A stretch of 64,000 nt of DNA. It comes from Escherichia phage vB_EcoM_LMP25. The notes beneath the pieces were generated by a model. That model did no database searches and was not told the DNA's origin. It saw nothing but the letters and a program-made list of their open reading frames with translations. The position numbers were made by a program, and so were the translations under genes. Position 1 is the first letter of the stretch. Every line of letters begins with the position of its first letter. Where the stretch lies: the sequence record MK482688.1; one strand, 5' to 3'. This document shows positions 3,326 through 58,089 of this stretch, piece by piece.

Positions 3326-5560
3326 CTAAACACCACAACCCTCGCAATAAGCATCTTGCAGTGCAGATTTACCTACACCAATGCGACTATTAAGGTAGTA
3401 CATGGTTTTCATACCTACCGAGTTGGCATAAATCATGTACTTCAGAGCTTGAGCCAATGATACCTTCTTAGACTTTGCATAGTCAACATAGAAGTCTGAA
3501 GAAATAGCTTGACCAGTGAACTTTTGAACAATTGCATAACAATCAATCATGTCAAAGGTGTCAATATCCCAAGCAATTTCATAAACATACTTCAACTCTT
3601 CATAATCTGGAACAATAAACAGTACGTTACCAGTTGCAGACTTTTTAGTTAAAATAAAGTCACGAATTGGGTACAAGCCATTTGTCGTGTTAGTTGCTAG
3701 TGAAGAACTCTCATTAGGCATGTAAGCTTCTAATACAGAGTTTCGGATTCCACCATTTTCTTTGATACGTTGTGCTAAGTCATCCCAATCATATCGTAGT
3801 TTTGCATCATGCTTTTCATCAATCTTCTTGTTAGCTGTCTTTGGAGGAACCCAGCCTTCAGGATACTTAGTGAACTTCATGTACTCTGGAACGCCACGCT
3901 CTTTAGCAAGTCTCAGAGAGGCTTCATGCAGATAGTAAGAGTGCATCTCTGCCAGTTCATGAAGTTTCGTTTTACCTGCTCGTGAAGAGTAGTTCACATA
4001 GTTCTTCGCAAGGTAATGAGCCACATTTGTAAGGCCAATCCCAACAGAACGACGCTTCTGAACATGGTTACGCATCGACGGATACGGATAATCCATAAGG
4101 TCAATAACGGAGTCAACCATTGCAAGAGCATAATAAGCAACGTCAGCGTATTCATCTTCTGAAATTCTCCCTGCAACCAAACTAGCTAGGAAGCAAAGAG
4201 CCACCTCACCATCCTCTTTCACAGCATCGTCTCTGTAAAGGTCTGTCTCTTTCTCAAAACCATACACTGGCAATACAATTTCCATACAAAGATTTGACAT
4301 CTTCAATGGTTCTTTAAATGGTGTATGTGTGTTTGCATTGTTAGTGAAGAATGGATACACACGACCTGTAGCATAACGCTGTTGAATAAACAGCTTAGCA
4401 ATTTCACGAGCCTTGACTCGTCTGTGCTTAACTCCTGAATGTACTGCGTGACCAACTGCCATAGCAAACTCATCAGCAGATGCTGTGTAGAACATGTCAT
4501 AGAGTTTTGGTGCATCTTTGTAAGAGAATAGCAACCAATCTGTATCATACTGAACACACTGCCAGAAGTAATCGTTTGTGCCGAATGAGTAGTCCATCTC
4601 ATTAATACGTTTAGAAGGAACCGTTGTAGGGTGCTTCAAACGCAGTAAATCTTCAATCTGCGGGTCTAGAGCAGTGTAGAAGTTGTTAGCTGAACCACCA
4701 CGACTCTTCTGTTTGTTTGCCTCTACAGATGAACGTACAAGCTTGTAATAAGGTAGCTTACCCATGTGTTCAATAGTATTTTGACGGATACCATCACCAA
4801 TAGTGCGAGTCTCCATCAGCATCCCGATACCAGCTTGCTTTGTAGTCATATCATAAGCAACCTTTGCAGCAATACCGAGAGATTCAGCGGTATCATTCGC
4901 CTTAATCAAACAGCATGACGCATAACCTGATTTAGTGGCTCTTAAACCATTCAGGTAAGGAGTAGGAGCGTTAATCTTCAGGTCAGATAGGTAAGTGTAC
5001 AGCTTGATAACATCTTGCAGTCTACGGTGCTTTGGTTGCTTCTCAAAGGCTTTCATAGCCATACCCATAAACATAAATTGTGGTGACTCAAAAAGTCTTC
5101 CCGTTTTAATATCACGGATACCATACTTGTCTCTGAACTGTTTCAGGACTGCATAACCATAAGAGATATCTTTTGAGTGCACAATGTACCCTTGCAGGTA
5201 TTCAAGCTCTTCCTGAGAATAGTCCATCTTCTCCCAAAGTCCTGCTCTCTCCATATTTTTAACGAAGGTAACCAGCGTAGGAACCTTAGTAAAACCTCCA
5301 AAGGCTTCTTTGTAGATAATTCCCAGAAGTAGCCGTCCAGCCATATCTGAGTACTCTTGAGTTTGTTTATCAACACAAACATCAATCATGGCTTGGTGCA
5401 TCTCTTTTGTAGTGCAACCTTCATAGACACGTTTCATGGCTTCCATAGTGACTTCTGACCAGATGATTCCGCGCTTATCTGCCCATGATGCCCACTTATT
5501 CAGTCTTTCTGGGTCAAAGCTTACTACTGTACCGTTTGATTTTTTAATTGTCTTAATCAT
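3326..5560 (-). CDS. nrdA: Ribonucleotide reductase class I alpha subunit
   Basis: 744 aa; N-terminal ATP-cone, then CCLIKANDTAESLG and SNLCMEIVLP active-site-like blocks and a C-terminal CEGCG tail typical of NrdA. Confidence 0.9.
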   Translation of the reverse strand: MIKTIKKSNGTVVSFDPERLNKWASWADKRGIIWSEVTMEAMKRVYEGCTTKEMHQAMIDVCVDKQTQEYSDMAGRLLLGIIYKEAFGGFTKVPTLVTFVKNMERAGLWEKMDYSQEELEYLQGYIVHSKDISYGYAVLKQFRDKYGIRDIKTGRLFESPQFMFMGMAMKAFEKQPKHRRLQDVIKLYTYLSDLKINAPTPYLNGLRATKSGYASCCLIKANDTAESLGIAAKVAYDMTTKQAGIGMLMETRTIGDGIRQNTIEHMGKLPYYKLVRSSVEANKQKSRGGSANNFYTALDPQIEDLLRLKHPTTVPSKRINEMDYSFGTNDYFWQCVQYDTDWLLFSYKDAPKLYDMFYTASADEFAMAVGHAVHSGVKHRRVKAREIAKLFIQQRYATGRVYPFFTNNANTHTPFKEPLKMSNLCMEIVLPVYGFEKETDLYRDDAVKEDGEVALCFLASLVAGRISEDEYADVAYYALAMVDSVIDLMDYPYPSMRNHVQKRRSVGIGLTNVAHYLAKNYVNYSSRAGKTKLHELAEMHSYYLHEASLRLAKERGVPEYMKFTKYPEGWVPPKTANKKIDEKHDAKLRYDWDDLAQRIKENGGIRNSVLEAYMPNESSSLATNTTNGLYPIRDFILTKKSATGNVLFIVPDYEELKYVYEIAWDIDTFDMIDCYAIVQKFTGQAISSDFYVDYAKSKKVSLAQALKYMIYANSVGMKTMYYLNSRIGVGKSALQDAYCEGCGV

Positions 5561-10161: not shown

Positions 10162-12153
10162 TCACTCAGTTTCGAACGGGCAGTCATCTGCATCCTCACT
10201 TAATACAGGTGGAATCGTTGAGCTTTGACGCTGCTCTTCAGTATAGACTTCACCAGTCTCACGGTCAAACACTTCATCCTCATAATGTGGCAAAGAGTCA
10301 TCATAATGGTCTTCAGCTTCACCAATACCAAACTGCTGGCGAATGTTTTCTGCTGCACCATCAATGTCAACTCCACAACCAGATGCTTTGATGAGACGTC
10401 CTGTATCTGGATTGTACCAAGTATGACCAGCAATACCAGTTGACTTACCATGACGACGACACTTAGTTAACTTGATTTTTGTCAAGTTTTTCTTAACTGG
10501 GTCTGGGTCAACCTTGTTACGCATTAACAGAATGTTATTCATAGAAATCTGAAAATACGCACCAGAACCTTTGATATCCTCTTCAGAGATATCTCCACCT
10601 TCAGAGTTAGCTTTCTGACCACCTGCACTCTTACGAACGTGACATACGTTTACCTGCGCATACTGGTAGCGTTTGCAACGACGCAATAGCTCAGACAAAA
10701 CTTCTTCTTCATCCGTATCAGAACGTGACAGGGCTAACGTGATAGGGTCAAGAATGATAATCTTACAGTCTAAACTGTTAACAAGATAGTCAACAAACTC
10801 TAGCAGGTTATCTTGGTCAATTGCCCCTTGATGGTCAACGATATGGATACGACGGCCTTTAGATAGTTCTGCGTGTGCTCCTTTTAATTCATCCCAATCC
10901 CGTTCATCATAAGGAATCTCAGAAATCTGCTTGCTCAGGTGGATTGCACAGAGCATCTCCATCAACTCTTCATAGGTATCTTCTACAGGAATTACACCGA
11001 TATTATAATCAGTTTCTTTCCAAGCTGAGTAAATCATCTCACGAGTGTAAGCTGACTTACCTACTGAAGATGGTGCTGCAATAGTTGTAATCTCACCTAA
11101 ACCGTAACCACCATAAGTCAGCCTGTTCAAATCTCCGAAAGATTCTGGGAAAGGAATCAATGGAATCTGACCACGATTCTTCATTGCCTCAAAACCATCT
11201 GCAAAGTTCTTGATACCAGCAGGACAGTAACGAGGTGCATTGTAGATACGCTGCTTAAATCCTTCCAGAACTGTATCTTTCTCTTTATAGAACTTTGTCC
11301 ACCACTCGTTAAGGTCTTTTACGCCTTCTGGATACTGGAATAAACGAACCTTCTCAATAGGTAGGATACCAGCAGCCTCTTTAGTGGCTTTAGCACCTGC
11401 TTCATCGTTATCAAAGCACAAGTAAATCTCATCAAATGATGTAATGTACTGATAGTTATCTTTGATAGACTTGATGTTTGCACCTGATGGAACAGATACG
11501 TGACAGTAATTCTTACGACGAGATTTGTCCTTAATCGCAAGAGAAGTCATATAGATTGCTGTCGCACATTCCATCTCACCTTCCCAGATGAATAGACGGT
11601 TACCACCTTCTGGAGCAATCCATGAACCGAACATTGCCAGTTCACCTTTAATGTCTCCAACACCACCAGAAAAGTCTTTTAACTTACCTCGTAGGTGCTC
11701 TTTTGGATGGTCTTCTGGGTAACGGTGACGAACACGGTAGCCAACATGCTCTAGCTTGCCATCTTCATTGCGTTTGTAAGTTGGGTAGAAATGCGCGTCA
11801 ATTTCACCATCACTGTCAATGTCAACCTTGATACCCAAACGCTCAAGAACTTTTGCAGGAATCTTCCTGTCCTTTAAGTCCATTGCTTCAAGGTTTTCTT
11901 TCACATCGTCTAAATCCATTCCACGGAAAGTACGGTTTTTATTGTCTGAACCAGTAGAATAAGTGCTCACGATTTGTCCTTTATCAAAATCCCACTCTGG
12001 GAAACCTTTGTTACAACTAAAGCAAGTCATTGAATAAGAACCATCGTCATGATGATAGATTGAACCAGCATCTGATGAACCACAACGTGGACATGCGCAA
12101 TGACCAACAAACTGACCAGCCTCTTTCAATTTACGACCTTTAGACATTAGCAC
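10162..12153 (-). CDS. Bifunctional DNA primase/helicase (T7 gp4-like)
   Basis: 663 aa; N-terminal Cys-rich zinc-binding region (CPRCGSS...CFSC), TOPRIM-like DNDEAG block, C-terminal P-loop PSSVGKS and DnaB-like helicase region. Confidence 0.85.
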   Translation of the reverse strand: MLMSKGRKLKEAGQFVGHCACPRCGSSDAGSIYHHDDGSYSMTCFSCNKGFPEWDFDKGQIVSTYSTGSDNKNRTFRGMDLDDVKENLEAMDLKDRKIPAKVLERLGIKVDIDSDGEIDAHFYPTYKRNEDGKLEHVGYRVRHRYPEDHPKEHLRGKLKDFSGGVGDIKGELAMFGSWIAPEGGNRLFIWEGEMECATAIYMTSLAIKDKSRRKNYCHVSVPSGANIKSIKDNYQYITSFDEIYLCFDNDEAGAKATKEAAGILPIEKVRLFQYPEGVKDLNEWWTKFYKEKDTVLEGFKQRIYNAPRYCPAGIKNFADGFEAMKNRGQIPLIPFPESFGDLNRLTYGGYGLGEITTIAAPSSVGKSAYTREMIYSAWKETDYNIGVIPVEDTYEELMEMLCAIHLSKQISEIPYDERDWDELKGAHAELSKGRRIHIVDHQGAIDQDNLLEFVDYLVNSLDCKIIILDPITLALSRSDTDEEEVLSELLRRCKRYQYAQVNVCHVRKSAGGQKANSEGGDISEEDIKGSGAYFQISMNNILLMRNKVDPDPVKKNLTKIKLTKCRRHGKSTGIAGHTWYNPDTGRLIKASGCGVDIDGAAENIRQQFGIGEAEDHYDDSLPHYEDEVFDRETGEVYTEEQRQSSTIPPVLSEDADDCPFETE

Positions 12154-14391: not shown

Positions 14392-14564
14392 GTAAGCCTC
14401 TTTTAAGTAACTATTAAGTTTTAATCTTTTATCTTAACGTATTCTATACGTTATACTTTAAAGCTTTTTAAAAGCTATTAAATAATCTTTTAAGAGTTTT
14501 AAAGTATCTGTATAGTTAAACTGTTAAGTAACCTTTTAAGTAAAAACCCACTTCGCAAAGATTA

Positions 14565-14589
14565 ACACCTTGTCAAGTACATTGTCAAC
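14565..14589. promoter_or_regulatory. Conserved ~25-bp box ACACCTTGTCAAGTAC(A/T)TTGTCAAC in a divergent intergenic region (second copy at 57006-57031)
   Basis: Near-identical sequence at two divergent promoter regions; contains two TTGTCAA (TTGACA on the minus strand) elements. Confidence 0.5.
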
Positions 14590-14648
14590 TTGCTTTTTAT
14601 AATTTTTTGCAGTAATGTATGAGGTTAATGATTTTAGAGGGAGTAAAA

Positions 14649-17348
14649 ATGGAAAACGTAGATTTTAAAAACTTACATTTAGTTGGTGATACAGAAACTG
14701 ATGGTTTACTCCTTGAGTTCACTAAAGTGCACGTAATGGCTTTCGCAGACTATAAATCTGACGATGAAGAGCCACCTGTATGGGTCTTTACAGATGAGCC
14801 TATCCTCGGTCACAAGTACACTAAGTACATCAAGGGTGGTTTACGTGAAGGTGTTGAGTTTGCGTTAAAGGCAAAACGACTTTGCATCCATAACGGCCTC
14901 GGTTATGACTGGTGGGTTTTCAATCACATTGCACCTGATTTATGGAACTTTGATAATCCAAAGTGTAAACCGTGGAGTAATTTCTTTCAGGATTCTCTTA
15001 TCCAGTCTCGTGTTCAGTGGATGGATAGACCAACTCCAAAGGGTTATAAAGGTGCTCATGGTTTGGCTGCATGGGGTGCTCGTGTTGGTGTTCGTAAACC
15101 AGAGATTGAACATTGGGGTGTGTGGAATGCAGAAATCTTCACTCGTGTTGTAGAAGATATCCGTATTAACGCCAAAACTAAACGGGCACTTGATAATGAA
15201 TATCTCAAGCTTAAGAAGTGTGGCATAGACACTTATGAAACCTACATGCGAGCTAAAGAAACATCTTTCTGGATGAGTCAACAAGCTATCAATGGCTGGA
15301 AAGCTGATAAAGAGCTTATGGAGTTCCATGTAAAGGAACTTGACAAGTTGACTAATGAGCTTGCTTCAGAGGTTGAACCACATCTACCTCCAACTATTAA
15401 GACTAAAGGTAAAGTCACTGGAGAAGAGTTTGCAAAAGCTTGGAATGAGTATGTTGAATCGTTCGGTCATGCAGATGGACTGAAGAGAATTACCAAGTAC
15501 CCTAAGACAAAGTACCGTCAGCAGGTACGTAACGGTGAGATGCAGACATATGAAATCAAGCCATTTGGTAAGCCAACTACAAAGATTTTTAACATTGAAA
15601 AGAGAAATTGCTATACACCAACCAACTCTGTAACTGGTGAAGAGTACAAGGAAGGCTTTGTAGCAATGAAGGATGCTCGTGCAATTTGCAATGAGTTGAA
15701 TGCAAAGATTGGTAAGAAATGCAAAGACTGGAAGCCAGTAAAAACAGTCAAAACTGTGAAGTACTACAACAGTCATGTTGTTAACCACTTTGAACTTGAG
15801 TCAAGTCGCTATACAGGTTTGATTGATGCACCATATACACCAATTGAGTTCGAAGTTTCTCGTATGACTCAGGTAGCAGTTGTTAAAGACTACTTGAAAT
15901 CAGTTGGTTGGATTCCAGATGACTGGAACTACAAGAAAGACTCAGATGGTCGCCCTGTCAAAGTTTGTCGTTTCAAAGACAACAAAAAGATGATTACAAA
16001 GCATCCTAAGTGGCAGGAGATGGTTGAACGGTGTGGCTTGAGTTATGTTGAACATGAAGGTGTCCAGTACATTGAGCATAACTGGTCTGTGAAGAAGTAC
16101 ACAGATTTGCTTGAGCCTTGCTTAATCCGTACTTCACCAAAACTTACTGAATCATCTTATGATACGATTGAAGGCGAGCTTGGACAGAAGATTGCTAAAT
16201 ACTATACTTTGATGCACCGACGTAGAACTATTGAGAACTCAAAGGATGATGAAAAAGGTTGGTTGAACCAGATTCGTCCTGATGGTCGCCTTAGTGCTGG
16301 TGCAATGGTGTTTGGTACTTCAACTGGACGTATGACACAATATGGTATTGTAAACGTACCGTCTGGTGCTGCTGTCTATGGGGAACCAATGAGGGCAGTG
16401 TGGATTTGTGAAGAAGGTACTAACGTCGTCTCTGTAGACATGAACTCAGCCCAGCTAGTTCTTCTTTGTAACTTTATGGGTGACAAAGACTTCACCAAAG
16501 CGGTGACGCAAGGTAAAGAAGAGATTGAGTTTATTCGTCAAGAAGATGGACGCTATTACTGCAAACATTTTGATGAGTACCTCAATCCAGAGATTGATAA
16601 GTACCTTCGCTATGACTCTGAGAATGACCTTTACGTTGTCTATTCAGGGACTGATGCACACACACTGAACAGTATTTACTTTAGCTTGAATGATGAGCAG
16701 GATATCTTGACTTGTCGAGCTACTCAGGATGAGAATCTTCTTCATGAGATTAGTAAAGGTCGTAAGAAAGCTAAGAATGGTATCTATGCACTGCTGTTCG
16801 GTGCAGGGGATGAGAAGTTTGCTAAGACGATTAAAGCTGCAACTACTCAGGAAGGTGCACTGACTAAACAAACTTACTTTATTCGTTTGCCTAAAATTAA
16901 GAAGCTACTAGATGACTTGGAAGCTGACTACAAAGCAACTAAAAAGGCACTTGAAGAGGTGTTTGGTAAGACTGCTGCAATCTCTAAAGGGGGTTTTGTA
17001 AAGGTTGCTGGAGCTTGGTTGTGGTGTAAATCTCCACATAAGTTATTGAATTATTTGCTCATGGGTTCAGAGGCTCAGATTCAAAATGAGGCAATTAACC
17101 TTGCTTGTAGAAGAGCATGTGAAGAAGGATTGACAAAATTAAATGGACGAAAACCAGCAATTGGTGCTAGGCTTTTGCTGGCATACCACGATGAAAACAG
17201 TTGGGAATGCCCAGAAAGTATGACTCAAGAAGTTAAAGCCATAACTGACTGGATGTATGGTCAGGCATCTAAGAATTTAGGTTTGAAGAGTGAGACGCTT
17301 GTAACTGGCACAGGTAAGGTTGGTAAGAGCTGGTTGGAAGTACATTGA
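14649..17348 (+). CDS. DNA polymerase, family A (Pol I-like) with 3'-5' proofreading exonuclease
   Basis: Start moved to the ATG at 14649 (GAGGGAG RBS). Exo I-like LVGDTETDGL, Pol A motif B RKKAKNGIYALLFGAG, motif C-like LAYHDENS. Confidence 0.85.
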   Translation: MENVDFKNLHLVGDTETDGLLLEFTKVHVMAFADYKSDDEEPPVWVFTDEPILGHKYTKYIKGGLREGVEFALKAKRLCIHNGLGYDWWVFNHIAPDLWNFDNPKCKPWSNFFQDSLIQSRVQWMDRPTPKGYKGAHGLAAWGARVGVRKPEIEHWGVWNAEIFTRVVEDIRINAKTKRALDNEYLKLKKCGIDTYETYMRAKETSFWMSQQAINGWKADKELMEFHVKELDKLTNELASEVEPHLPPTIKTKGKVTGEEFAKAWNEYVESFGHADGLKRITKYPKTKYRQQVRNGEMQTYEIKPFGKPTTKIFNIEKRNCYTPTNSVTGEEYKEGFVAMKDARAICNELNAKIGKKCKDWKPVKTVKTVKYYNSHVVNHFELESSRYTGLIDAPYTPIEFEVSRMTQVAVVKDYLKSVGWIPDDWNYKKDSDGRPVKVCRFKDNKKMITKHPKWQEMVERCGLSYVEHEGVQYIEHNWSVKKYTDLLEPCLIRTSPKLTESSYDTIEGELGQKIAKYYTLMHRRRTIENSKDDEKGWLNQIRPDGRLSAGAMVFGTSTGRMTQYGIVNVPSGAAVYGEPMRAVWICEEGTNVVSVDMNSAQLVLLCNFMGDKDFTKAVTQGKEEIEFIRQEDGRYYCKHFDEYLNPEIDKYLRYDSENDLYVVYSGTDAHTLNSIYFSLNDEQDILTCRATQDENLLHEISKGRKKAKNGIYALLFGAGDEKFAKTIKAATTQEGALTKQTYFIRLPKIKKLLDDLEADYKATKKALEEVFGKTAAISKGGFVKVAGAWLWCKSPHKLLNYLLMGSEAQIQNEAINLACRRACEEGLTKLNGRKPAIGARLLLAYHDENSWECPESMTQEVKAITDWMYGQASKNLGLKSETLVTGTGKVGKSWLEVH

Positions 17349-17358
17349 TGGTGTTGAA

Positions 17359-17871
17359 ATGATTACAGAAATTCGTCTTAAGGAGCTATTGGACTACGAC
17401 CCCGAAACAGGGGTCTTTACTTGGAAGTTTAGAGAAGGTAATGCAAACTTTAACTCTAGATTTGGAGGTAAGAGGGCTGGAAACTACAGAACAAATACTG
17501 ATGGACACAAGTCAGTTCAGTTGCTGATTGATGGAAGGGGTTACCAAGCAAATCGTTTAGTTATCTTGTATATGGATGGATATCTACCTGATAAAACCTT
17601 ACAGGTTGACCATAAGAATGGGGACGGTTGGGACAATAGGTACTTGAATTTAAGGGTTTGTACAGCTTCACAAAACTCTTGCAATCGGTCAAGAGAGTCC
17701 CCATCTGGGTTGCCAAAAGGTGTACAGAAGATAAGTAAAAGGTTTCGAGCAATGATACGTTTACAAGGTAAAAACTATCATCTTGGTATGTTTGACACAC
17801 CAGAAGAAGCCCATAAAGCTTACTGTGAAGCTGCTATTAAACTCCACGGAGAGTTTGCAAAACTAAGTTGA
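17359..17871 (+). CDS. HNH homing endonuclease with AP2-type DNA-binding domain
   Basis: VDHKNGDGWDNRYLNLRVCTASQN (HNH core) plus C-terminal AP2-like RAMIRLQGKNYHLGMFDTPEEAHKAY; begins 11 nt after the polymerase stop. Confidence 0.7.
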   Translation: MITEIRLKELLDYDPETGVFTWKFREGNANFNSRFGGKRAGNYRTNTDGHKSVQLLIDGRGYQANRLVILYMDGYLPDKTLQVDHKNGDGWDNRYLNLRVCTASQNSCNRSRESPSGLPKGVQKISKRFRAMIRLQGKNYHLGMFDTPEEAHKAYCEAAIKLHGEFAKLS

Positions 17872-17922
17872 CAAGGTGCTCAGGGAAGAGTACCTTATAC
17901 TACATCTTGTATAGGAGGGCTT

Positions 17923-20286: not shown

Positions 20287-20433
20287 ATGTTCAGTACAGT
20301 CATTCTGTTTATACTGGTTGTCTTTGTATTATCATACATTGCAAGTAAGCTTTTGGACACATCTTTTGCAATGGGTGTTTTGTTCACAATCTTTTGTTTT
20401 GTAACACATATAGCTATCAGGACTTTTATATAA
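20287..20433 (+). CDS. Small membrane protein (hypothetical, 48 aa)
   Basis: Hand-translated MFSTVILFILVVFVLSYIASK...; preferred over the antisense 76-aa ORF 20274..20504 because of strand context. Confidence 0.25.
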   Translation: MFSTVILFILVVFVLSYIASKLLDTSFAMGVLFTIFCFVTHIAIRTFI

Positions 20434-20439
20434 AAAGTT

Positions 20440-20467
20440 GTTGACATAGAAAATTTGGTGAGTATAC
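20440..20467 (+). promoter_or_regulatory. Sigma70-like promoter TTGACA-N16-TATACT
   Basis: Consensus -35 and near-consensus -10 at the head of the repeat-containing leader. Confidence 0.5.
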
Positions 20468-20500
20468 TGAGCAGCATAAACCAACGGGTACTCACCAGCA

Positions 20501-22163: not shown

Positions 22164-22213
22164 AAGCTATAAAATCTGTTGACAAGTCAGGTGTTATAGC
22201 TTATTTTTATACT
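22164..22213 (+). promoter_or_regulatory. Putative promoter (TTGACA at 22179) embedded in a 9-bp inverted repeat AAGCTATAA...TTATAGCTT (operator-like)
   Basis: -35 consensus hexamer centred between perfect 9-bp inverted-repeat arms (22164-22172 / 22194-22202); -10 is ambiguous (TATTTT or TATACT). Confidence 0.4.
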
Positions 22214-54869: not shown

Positions 54870-54901
54870 ACCACTTTAACATTATTTTTTAGTGATTGTC
54901 A
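54870..54901 (-). promoter_or_regulatory. Putative minus-strand promoter (TTGACA-N18-TAAAGT) upstream of the tRNA array
   Basis: TTGACA with a weak -10; carries a variant (TTGTCAAGAACTTTTTT) of the motif at 53431 and 57028. Confidence 0.35.
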
Positions 54902-54965
54902 AGAACTTTTTTAAAATATTTTTCAGTATCTTAGAAAAGCTCTCATTTCGTTTCTATGTAGAACA

Positions 54966-54994
54966 TATTAAAGGGTATTAAACACATTGTCAAT
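54966..54994 (-). promoter_or_regulatory. Sigma70-like promoter TTGACA-N17-TAATAT upstream of the tRNA array
   Basis: Consensus-like hexamers with 17-nt spacing, between the vWA gene stop and the first tRNA. Confidence 0.5.
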
Positions 54995-55011
54995 ACCCTT
55001 TTTAAAACTTT

Positions 55012-56427
55012 TTACCAGATATAACGGTCAATCATTACTGCTTTGAGCATTACACTGATTGGGTCAAACTTCTCACCACCAAGCAGAGCTTTTAAAGTGG
55101 CTGGAGAGAACCCTGATACCATTGCTACACCGTTATCCTTAACAGATACTTCGCAAGTACCATTACGGTTTGCTAAGTACCAGAATACCAGTTGTGGCAT
55201 CTCATATCCAGCTTTTTTGTACTTACTCTGAATTGCTTCAAAGTTTGTACGTCCGTTAGCTCCATCAACCTGATTGAACTCCATATCGGAGAAGATGATA
55301 AGCTTACTTGGCATATCTTTCTGAGTCAAGTTGTTTCTTTTACCTGTCTCAAGAATGCGGTCAAAAGCTGCTTGTAAGTTAGTTGAGCCATATTCAACGT
55401 GTCGCATCACCTGACGATGACGGTTTCGTAAATTACCACTCAGTTCGATGAAGTGAGGGTTTGTTGAATAAACCATCAACTCATCCTTAAAGCAACCTGT
55501 ATTGCGTTCTGCTACATACAAGGCAAGTGATACACCAATATCAAGTGCAGTGATTGAACCAAAATTCACCCAAGACATTGAGCTTGAAACATCAGTCATA
55601 CATAGGATGTTTTCACCTTCTGCCATCCAGTTTGGTAGTGCTTTCCACTGCTCATTAGCAACATCTGCATTACCATACTTGAGAGATTTAATCACATCGT
55701 ATGGATAAACAGCACCAGCATTAATCTTAGTCTCACCTTTTGATAAGGACTCGATGTAAGCTTTGTAACGCTCTCCATCTTTACGGTTAAACAGTTTTTG
55801 GTAACGTGCAGCAGCAAGTGAAGGAATCTTACTGTAGTCAATATTACCAAACTCATTAGCAGAGATTTTTTGTTCAACTGTATCAGATAGTGCAGACAGC
55901 AGTGTGCGGTACTCTTTCTCACTCAAGTTTGCAAACTTGCAGAAACGTTTTACAAACTGCTTATGACGTGGTTTGACTCGTGGTAACCACTTAGCCGCCA
56001 AACCTGCTGTTGCAGGGTCTAGTAATGCTGCTTCTAAATGTTTGAAGGCATCTGTCTCGAAACGAGTACCTACGAAGATTTTGAAGTCATCAAAACGACC
56101 AAGTTCTGCAATCTTATCCATAATGCGAAGAACCTGCGTAGGCTCTAAAACTTTATCTTCAATCGCTTGAAGCAAAACAGTTCTGAAGGCTTTACGCTCA
56201 CCCATACCTTCTCGTACATCTCGCATATGCAGTAAAATACGAACTGCAACATCAACATCCTCACGCAAAGCTTTGTAGAACAAGTCTGGTAAGATTTCTA
56301 CATTGCTACGGCTTGAACCAGCAGCTTTGTAAAAATCTACAAGAGCAGACATTGATGAAGTATGGTTTACAGCACCATTTTCAGTTCGACCTGCATGAAG
56401 GTGCGCATGTTTAAATAACTCGCTCAT
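55012..56427 (-). CDS. von Willebrand factor A (vWA) domain protein with helical N-terminal domain; possible Ro60/TROVE-like RNA-binding protein
   Basis: 471 aa; MIDAS motif DVSSSM (DxSxS) at about residue 296 starts a ~175-aa C-terminal vWA-like region; ~290-aa helical N-terminus. Encoded directly upstream of the tRNA array. Confidence 0.5.
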   Translation of the reverse strand: MSELFKHAHLHAGRTENGAVNHTSSMSALVDFYKAAGSSRSNVEILPDLFYKALREDVDVAVRILLHMRDVREGMGERKAFRTVLLQAIEDKVLEPTQVLRIMDKIAELGRFDDFKIFVGTRFETDAFKHLEAALLDPATAGLAAKWLPRVKPRHKQFVKRFCKFANLSEKEYRTLLSALSDTVEQKISANEFGNIDYSKIPSLAAARYQKLFNRKDGERYKAYIESLSKGETKINAGAVYPYDVIKSLKYGNADVANEQWKALPNWMAEGENILCMTDVSSSMSWVNFGSITALDIGVSLALYVAERNTGCFKDELMVYSTNPHFIELSGNLRNRHRQVMRHVEYGSTNLQAAFDRILETGKRNNLTQKDMPSKLIIFSDMEFNQVDGANGRTNFEAIQSKYKKAGYEMPQLVFWYLANRNGTCEVSVKDNGVAMVSGFSPATLKALLGGEKFDPISVMLKAVMIDRYIW

Positions 56428-56508
56428 ATTTTACTCTCTTCTCTCATTTGTTGTTTGATGTGACAGACTTTAGAGTAACTTTATAGAGTCTGTCAACATC
56501 TTTTAAAA

Positions 56509-56880: not shown

Positions 56881-57005
56881 TGGTATGCCTCTTATAAGAC
56901 CTCTTAAAAGGCTTTTAAGATAAAAGATAGATATCCAGAAAGATATCTGTTTAAATAGCCTTTTTAGAGGAACCTTTTAAGTTATCTTCTAAGTATTTAT
57001 AAGCC

Positions 57006-57031
57006 TACACCTTGTCAAGTACTTTGTCAAC
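57006..57031. promoter_or_regulatory. Conserved ~25-bp box (second copy of the 14565-14589 motif) in a divergent intergenic region
   Basis: ACACCTTGTCAAGTACTTTGTCAAC; one TTGACA on the minus strand sits 17 nt from TAGGCT, a possible weak -10. Confidence 0.5.
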
Positions 57032-57128
57032 AACTTTTTTAACTTGCAATAGTTCTTGACTTGTTGTATGGATTACTGTACCATCTTACTTAAGCTGTAG
57101 GTCTGCCTTGTTCTACAAAGGAGACTTA

Positions 57129-57505: not shown

Positions 57506-58089
57506 CAGTAAGTTTTAATTACAATAGTGATGGCTCTGTATCAATTAATTCACCATATGCAAATGACCTACTTAAAGAGCTAGTCAATCAGTGTGGTAGA
57601 GGTCTTCACTATGTTCAAAATTCTTTTAAACAGAAGACTATTGCTAATAACTTGATGCGTGTAACAGTAACGGCATCGAATCCAAATTATGACTTTGATA
57701 GTGAAAGTCCGTATTCATTAGTTGCGCTTGGAGAGAGCAGCCAATTCAAACTTGTTTGCCACGACTCAGAAACATTCCTTAAGGTATTTTCCAACCTTAT
57801 CCATAATAATAAGTACAGCTACGTTGATGGTAGTGTAAATTTCTATCCAGCAAACTATACATGTTTGTTGGTTGATAATATGAGAAAAAGTAAGCAAGAG
57901 CCTACGGAAATTTCATTTGATGTGAACTCTAGTCCAGACGCAGAAACAAGTAAGAACTTTGATATGAGTTACGCATTGTCACTCAGTAAGAAATCCGAGT
58001 TCATTGATTATGTCAATGGATTTGGTTTTAAGTTTGATGAGAGTATGAATCTTAAAAAACTTAAGAACCTACTTAAGACCAAAGCTTAA
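57499..58089 (+). CDS. Hypothetical protein
   Basis: 196 aa. Confidence 0.4.
   Translation: MLTVSFNYNSDGSVSINSPYANDLLKELVNQCGRGLHYVQNSFKQKTIANNLMRVTVTASNPNYDFDSESPYSLVALGESSQFKLVCHDSETFLKVFSNLIHNNKYSYVDGSVNFYPANYTCLLVDNMRKSKQEPTEISFDVNSSPDAETSKNFDMSYALSLSKKSEFIDYVNGFGFKFDESMNLKKLKNLLKTKA

Follow-up and report, generated by a model that had tools for sequence, protein, structure and literature searches.

A 25-bp box at the two divergent-transcription points of a Felixounavirus genome is probably the core of two leftward host-type promoters

Two distant intergenic regions of the genome of Escherichia phage vB_EcoM_LMP25, from which genes are transcribed in opposite directions, share a nearly identical 25-bp box, which raises the question of what this box does and which of the flanking genes it serves. 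An original prediction, made from the sequence alone, presented it as a shared regulatory site at which a phage or host factor controls divergent transcription. We analyzed a 64,000-nucleotide stretch of this genome (record MK482688.1; hereafter the window). Around both sites it matches Escherichia phages vB_EcoM_LMP33 and LMP34, of the genus Felixounavirus, with 100% identity, and the LMP34 genome, taken in reverse-strand orientation, is collinear with it; many Felixounavirus genomes, for example those of wV8 and the O157 typing phages, show 96–99% identity in the same regions. Because gene orientation splits the genome into four transcription blocks (minus strand to 14391, plus strand between ~14649 and 25735, minus strand over 25775–56880, and plus strand beyond ~57129), the genome has only two points of divergent transcription, and a copy of the box lies at each. 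In Felix O1 the matching regions are those of genes 96/97 and 40/41; the genome paper of that phage describes the same four "transcriptons", finds one of the divergence points, the second, "odd" and says outright that the temporal regulation is not understood (PMC3185647). Phages of the Felix O1 type find wide use in Salmonella and E. coli typing, biocontrol and therapy.

The gene context of both sites was as first described. Site 1 lies between a minus-strand operon, encoding a 140-aa protein, a dNMP kinase and others, and the gene of a family A DNA polymerase; site 2 lies between a DUF5681 / DUF2828-DUF7788 (vWA-like) / tRNA unit and plus-strand genes. The 471-aa 'vWA' protein (55012–56427, minus strand) has Pfam matches to DUF2828 and DUF7788 and is encoded directly upstream of a 25-gene tRNA array; its wV8 ortholog is an RNA-binding protein according to RefSeq. 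Within the 660-bp gap that runs from tRNA-Ser to tRNA-Ile, Rfam gives a weak extra tRNA-like match (53034–53112, minus strand; 31.7 bits, just over the gathering score), which is not called by ARAGORN.

When the whole window was scanned with the box pattern ACACCTTGTCAAGTACWTTGTCAAC, allowing up to three mismatches, exactly two matches were found, at 14565–14589 and 57007–57031. The first copy had been placed correctly; the second begins at 57007 rather than 57006. The claim of near-identity was borne out, since the copies agree at 24 of 25 positions and differ at one base, and none of 100 shuffled sequences contained a match at the same threshold. In the 21 kb by which the LMP34 genome extends beyond the window, the box was likewise absent at up to three mismatches. 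A motif search of the complete genome, which had been suggested as a check, located the full box only at the two divergent intergenic regions and nowhere at random, non-intergenic positions, and its sequence and uniqueness are established on this basis. The two TTGTCAA elements described within the box are present, but they are spaced 12 nt from start to start, leaving a gap of 5 nt and not the 7 nt first reported. TTGTCAA alone is not over-represented (25 observed vs 21 expected). An exact-pattern scan of IMG/VR with TTGACAANNNNNTTGACAAG returned at least 120 contigs, mostly unrelated; by a rough estimate, 15 specified bases would yield about as many by chance in a collection of that size, so the scan was uninformative. 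The KhF3 GenBank record labels an 11-bp 'direct repeat sequence2 posible binding site of StbAB' inside a 196-aa gene, equivalent to window positions ~58023–58033 (L001 3124–3134); this repeat is unrelated to the box.

Read on the minus strand, the box is GTTGACAAWGTACTTGACAAGGTGT and contains two perfect sigma-70 -35 hexamers (TTGACA) 12 bp apart, with an A-tract before them. On that strand copy 1 reads GTTGACAATGTACTTGACAAGGTGT and copy 2 reads GTTGACAAAGTACTTGACAAGGTGT; the preceding sequence is AAAAAGCAAG at site 1 and AAAAAAGTTG at site 2. Since the minus-strand box has the directional layout of a sigma-70-type promoter core, we consider it probable that it forms the core of two strong leftward host RNA polymerase promoters and serves only the leftward operon at each site. 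The notion of a shared regulatory site is upheld to the extent that the box is unique to both divergence points; a special factor for divergent transcription is not needed, the simplest candidate being the host sigma-70 polymerase. The box would constitute the -36 to -12 core of two paralogous sigma-70 promoters, both firing leftward. The promoter at site 1 would drive the replication / nucleotide-metabolism / rII early operon, and that at site 2 the DUF5681 / vWA-like / tRNA unit that heads the structural block.

Polymerase would dock on the upstream TTGACA, the proposed -35 (14583–14588 at site 1 and 57025–57030 at site 2, both minus strand), and on the A-tract that precedes it, and would open the DNA at a weak TAnnnT -10 situated 17–18 bp downstream. 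Upstream of the leftward promoter at site 1, the A/T-rich tract CTGCAAAAAATTATAAAAAGCAA (14590–14612, minus strand) is UP-element-like and overlaps the rightward promoter core; the A-tract at site 2, TTAAAAAAGTT (57032–57043, minus strand), is common to the other short-motif promoters described below. The proposed -10 of site 1 is TAATCT (14559–14564, minus strand; TAGTCT in Mooglevirus), preceded by TGT and located 18 bp past the first hexamer. At site 2 the proposed -10 is TAGGCT (57002–57007, minus strand), 17 bp past the first hexamer, and its counterparts in other genera, TAGCCT, TAAGTT and TAGTGT, also conform to TAnnnT. The -10 register relative to the box is shifted by 1 bp between the two sites. 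Both -10 hexamers are weak, with 3–4 matches out of six; they fall below the threshold of a consensus scanner and were not called. Transcription is predicted to start near 14552 and 56995, and the transcripts would begin with long, conserved, AT-rich leaders carrying further common motifs. We infer the use of sigma-70, the start sites and the early timing of these promoters from the sequence. The searchable literature yielded no transcription start mapping for any Felix O1-like phage, and RT-PCR of Felix O1 shows ORFs 41, 42, 96 and 97 peaking at 25 min, not at 5 min (PMC3185647), which counts against the proposal.

Promoter predictions at these sites in relatives were already known. The site 2 element is the ortholog of the predicted Felix O1 promoter P41 (TTGACA-N15-TATAGG; PMC3185647), and in the AYO145A record (NC_028825) the site 1 box is annotated as a promoter, at the equivalent position and with the same hexamers as proposed here. 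Other genome papers list program-predicted promoters only. We found no description of the conserved twin-hexamer design in the literature. Two other candidates in and around the box were rejected. A plus-strand promoter reading finds in TTGTCA a 5/6 match to the -35, but the partner hexamers are absent or not conserved. A T4-late-like TATAAATA just after the site 2 box reads TCTAAATA in close relatives and TAATAAAA in other genera.

The short motif that had been noted alongside the box does recur, although at positions other than those first given: TGTCAACAACTTTTTT is found at 57025–57040 and 53429–53444, and a variant with one mismatch at 54897–54912. It is the reverse complement of AAAAAAGTTGTTGACA, that is, an A-tract plus a -35. 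Copies with no more than one mismatch (20441, plus strand; 53434, 54902 and 57030, minus strand) occur only in non-coding DNA and are co-oriented with genes; looser copies at 22179 (plus strand), 54993 and 56496 (both minus strand) are likewise intergenic and co-oriented, and the loosest matches, with three mismatches (7476 and 50266), fall inside predicted ORFs. We propose that the short motif represents the A-tract and -35 consensus of the phage's whole set of host-type promoters. The more general pattern TTGACA-N16-18-TAnnnT has 17 matches in the window (128 kb counting both strands), 16 of them co-oriented with genes. Ten of the 17, again co-oriented, lie in the 10% of the DNA that is non-coding, where ~0.85 would be expected (binomial P 1.4e-9), and both boxes are among these ten; the orientation of the box and the enrichment of the pattern are established by these counts.

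Individual candidates include a short-motif promoter inside the tRNA region, AAAAAAGTTG-TTGACA-N17-TATAGT (53406–53444, minus strand), and a variant-motif promoter just upstream of the tRNA array, AAAAAAGTTC-TTGACA-N18-TAAAGT (54873–54912, minus strand). Between the DUF5681 gene and the vWA-like gene lies TTAAAAGATG-TTGACA-N18-TAAAGT (56467–56506, minus strand), and TAAAAAGTTG-TTGACA-N16-TATACT (20431–20468, plus strand) is co-oriented with plus-strand genes. All intergenic consensus promoters fall in the early, tRNA and replication regions, five of them at 53.4–57.0 kb, in the first 4 kb of the strand block that also contains the structural genes. None was found in the ~24-kb head/tail/terminase module (25775–49341), so the late genes must use read-through or another promoter type. 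Two further elements were observed in gaps between genes. Just after the vWA-like gene (54965–55003, minus strand), there is a hairpin, AAAGGGTATTGACAATGTGTTTAATACCCTTT, that has been listed as a terminator for Felix O1; a TTGACA within it has TAATAT as its partner at 17 bp, and a terminator and a promoter appear to overlap there. In an inter-ORF gap at 17868–17896 (plus strand), a single second half of the box, TTGACAAGGTGC, is paired with TACCTT at 17 bp and is probably another promoter sharing the TTGACAAGGTG string.

Sigma-70 early promoters of lytic coliphages (T4 early, T5, T7 A1-type) have A-rich upstream regions. The leftward promoters resemble them in the perfect TTGACA, the 17–18 bp spacer, the TAnnnT hexamer and the upstream A-tract, as well as in being intergenic, co-oriented, clustered in early regions and present in several near-identical copies per genome. 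They differ in the weak -10 and in the invariant second TTGACAA, which sits in the spacer 10–13 bp past the first. Both divergence points are tied to a common, strongly conserved promoter module, and the structural block is devoid of consensus host-type promoters; the promoter map and this gap offer a guide for start-site mapping and for engineering, such as the insertion of a payload or reporter under early control. The practical consequence is modest, and if the box is only a strong host-type promoter, its recognition is routine annotation. For promoter architecture, the conserved second -35-like hexamer is a minor puzzle that experiments could address.

This second TTGACAA is not accounted for by a plain sigma-70 promoter; its hexamer lies within the spacer at 14571–14576 (site 1) and 57013–57018 (site 2), both on the minus strand. 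We compared intergenic regions fetched via their flanking genes, not via the box, from 21 and 28 IMG/VR contigs and from Suspvirus and Mooglevirus GenBank genomes. Together, both sites in Felixounavirus, Suspvirus and Mooglevirus gave 16 distinct box variants, and in all 16 the two TTGACA hexamers, each with its following A, are retained together with the T-A...T of the -10, which establishes the conservation of the box. The upstream hexamer is invariant at both sites. The 6-nt linker between the hexamers carries two to four different bases at 5–6 columns and is the most variable stretch of the intergenic region. Within the spacer of the 16 variants, the 6 nt past the -35 vary freely and the next 7–8 nt (TTGACAAG) are invariant. 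Concerted evolution of the linker between the sites was not seen: in SUSP1 and Mooglevirus the linkers differ between sites, indicating that the near-identical linker of this phage is lineage-specific. The second hexamer was rejected as an independent sigma-70 promoter; it has no -10 partner at site 1, where the sequence 17 bp on is AAGTGG, and at site 2 the corresponding TACTTA is not kept in other genera.

The pattern TTGACA-N17/18-TAnnnT is still present at the equivalent places in more distant Ounavirinae, so the promoter reading is consistent across the subfamily. In Hafnia phage Zyzzx the hexamer is doubled at each divergence site, with spacings of 10 and 11 bp, and the -10s are TATTGT and TACTCT. 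A single hexamer is found in Pectobacterium Wc4, with a -10 of TAGGCT at site 1 and TACCCT at site 2, and in Erwinia Fifi106 and Prophecy, with TACATT at site 1; site 2 of Fifi106 has a weaker TTTACA-N17-TACACT. The comparison indicates that the second hexamer is a selected, lineage-specific addition with flexible spacing. We infer that it would serve either as an additional site on which sigma region 4 can dock, thereby raising promoter occupancy, or as an operator half-site for a regulator covering the promoter. Between small early-region genes of LMP34 outside the window (L005 1819–1837, plus strand) lies a third promoter with twin hexamers, AAAAAAGTG-TTGACAATACCCATTGACA; its period is 13 bp, and its upstream hexamer pairs with TAACTT at 17 bp. 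Paired TTGACA hexamers at 3550–3564 and 11814–11825 (both minus strand; 9-bp and 6-bp periods, respectively) lie in coding sequence with neither A-tract nor -10 and probably arose by chance.

If the second hexamer is an operator half-site, the direct repeat TTGACAA-N5-TTGACAAG would also bind a phage-encoded or host regulator that covers the -35 and the spacer and switches both major leftward promoters, together with the third early twin-hexamer promoter, off or on at once. This would add a layer to the sigma-70 explanation, with which it is compatible, and we regard it as possible but rather unlikely. The invariance of the second hexamer in 16 variants beside a freely variable linker speaks for it, as does the lack of a usable -10 at 16–18 bp from this hexamer at site 1, or of a conserved one at site 2. 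The retention of twin hexamers at both divergence sites of the distant phage Zyzzx and the existence of the third twin-hexamer promoter in the early region (L005 1819) point in the same direction, and an operator would address the temporal control that the Felix O1 authors left unexplained (PMC3185647). However, the spacing is not fixed (12, 12 and 13 bp here, 10 and 11 bp in Zyzzx), which is unusual for a rigid dimeric DNA-binding protein, one hexamer suffices in the Erwinia and Pectobacterium relatives, and no candidate binding protein was identified. Moreover, the half-sites are identical to the -35 consensus and are more simply accounted for by sigma region 4 itself. The arrangement recalls the lambda CII and P22 C1 sites (TTGC-N6-TTGC straddling the -35) in that short direct repeats, separated by roughly a helical turn, overlap the -35; CII sites, however, flank a poor -35 with a fixed 10-bp period, whereas here each repeat is a consensus -35 and the period varies by lineage.

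The similarity of the two sites extends beyond the box, the regions being paralogous over ~90 bp. The leftward leaders, 14392–14552 and 56881–56995 (minus strand), are ~160 and ~115 nt long. The exact 12-mer ACTTAAAAGGTT is found only twice in the window, once per site, at 14530–14541 (~+11 from the predicted start) and 56971–56982 (~+13), both on the minus strand. At 15–17 nt past it, both leaders carry a second motif of the form TAWACAGATAY, namely TATACAGATAC at 14504–14514 and TAAACAGATAT at 56943–56953 (minus strand), and six of the window's 16 copies of CTTAAAAG also lie within the leaders. Among Felixouna-, Susp- and Mooglevirus the leaders are 92–100% conserved, compared with ~78% for the flanking coding sequence, and they contain 70–77% A+T, compared with 61% for the window. 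Their folding beats that of all 200 shuffles (z -3.4 and -2.9). Rfam assigned the leaders to no family, giving chance-level matches only (E >0.4, far under the gathering scores), and a search with both leaders and the whole window returned nothing but tRNAs. By inspection, a candidate pairing of the 5' end of the site 1 leader with the ribosome-binding site is not kept in Mooglevirus. The Hafnia, Pectobacterium and Erwinia relatives also have AACAG / CTTTAAAG-type motifs in the corresponding leaders.

The twin TTGACAA and the leader motifs, ACTTAAAAGGTT at ~+12 and TAWACAGATAY, might together form a common control module for a phage or host factor, a suggestion that we put forward tentatively and with considerable doubt. 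Through such a module the factor would switch both master leftward promoters, and a third early one, in concert. Felix O1-like phages encode neither an RNA polymerase nor a recognised sigma or anti-sigma factor, and the module would provide the mechanism still missing for their temporal control.

It is distinctly improbable that the two sites are replication origins like T4 oriF and oriG, in which a promoter is combined with an AT-rich unwinding region and an R-loop transcript primes DNA synthesis; on that view the box would act as origin promoter, and the conserved leader would be where unwinding or recognition takes place. The phage sites do resemble oriF and oriG in lying where coding switches strand and in having a long AT-rich non-coding stretch downstream of a promoter, but the high A+T content is not specific to origins, and the phage sites lack a MotA-type middle promoter. 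In conservation the leaders exceed the flanking genes, and CTTAAAAG and AACAG-type motifs are repeated within them; their conservation, however, is one of sequence and not only of composition, and an unwinding element needs no base-by-base conservation. Cumulative GC skew has minima at ~14 kb and ~57 kb, but the skew tracks gene orientation here and cannot separate replication from transcription. Site 1 lies between replication genes, yet neither an origin-binding protein nor an iteron family was recognised, and experimental origin data for this phage group were not found.

The PhoB pho box consists of two 7-bp direct repeats, with the half-site CTGTCAT, that have an 11-bp period and replace the -35. 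The idea that the plus strand of the box is such a site, TTGTCAA-N5-TTGTCAA, at which an OmpR/PhoB-type regulator switches on the rightward genes (at site 1 that of the DNA polymerase, at site 2 the block of small-ORF / Ig-domain genes), draws on a core TGTCA that matches the half-site and on direct repeats standing beside a -10-like hexamer in pho promoter-like geometry (a perfect TATAAT 9 nt past the second repeat at site 1, TAACTT at the same distance at site 2), but we discard it as scarcely credible because these partners are not conserved in Suspvirus or Mooglevirus (GAAACT or GAAGAT in SUSP1 and Mordin at site 1; TCAGTT, TGATAT or TTAGGT at site 2), the period is 12 bp here and 10, 11 or 13 bp in other copies, not a fixed 11 bp, the repeats equal the sigma-70 -35 consensus, every short-motif copy points with the TTGACA strand, and the rightward genes have separate conserved promoters.

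Beside the leftward host-type promoters proposed for the box, sequence and alignment conservation point to a rightward promoter for the DNA polymerase gene at site 1, TTGCTT-N17-TAATGT (14590–14618, plus strand; -10 TAGGGT in Mooglevirus). Only 1 bp separates its -35 from the leftward one, and a polymerase bound at either promoter therefore probably keeps a second from binding at the other. The plus-strand promoter annotated in AYO145A corresponds to window positions 14598–14630, slightly downstream of this candidate and overlapping it. At site 2 the rightward candidate is TTGACT-N17-TACCAT (57056–57084, plus strand), which is invariant across genera. The sequence CTTGCAATAGTTCTTGACTTGTTGT (57043–57067, plus strand) might be a diverged, inverted copy of the box, matching it weakly at 17 of 25 positions with a twin-hexamer layout. 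Only 4 of 5000 local shuffles equalled this match, but eight other matches of 17–18 out of 25 occur across the window once overlaps with the boxes are excluded; the copy is locally unusual and weak window-wide, and we do not find it convincing. The mechanical ORF of the DNA polymerase starts at ATG 14619 (plus strand), which overlaps the predicted -10 of its own promoter. The true start is likely the in-frame ATG at 14649, which has GAGGGAG before it and is the start used in the SUSP1 and Mordin records.
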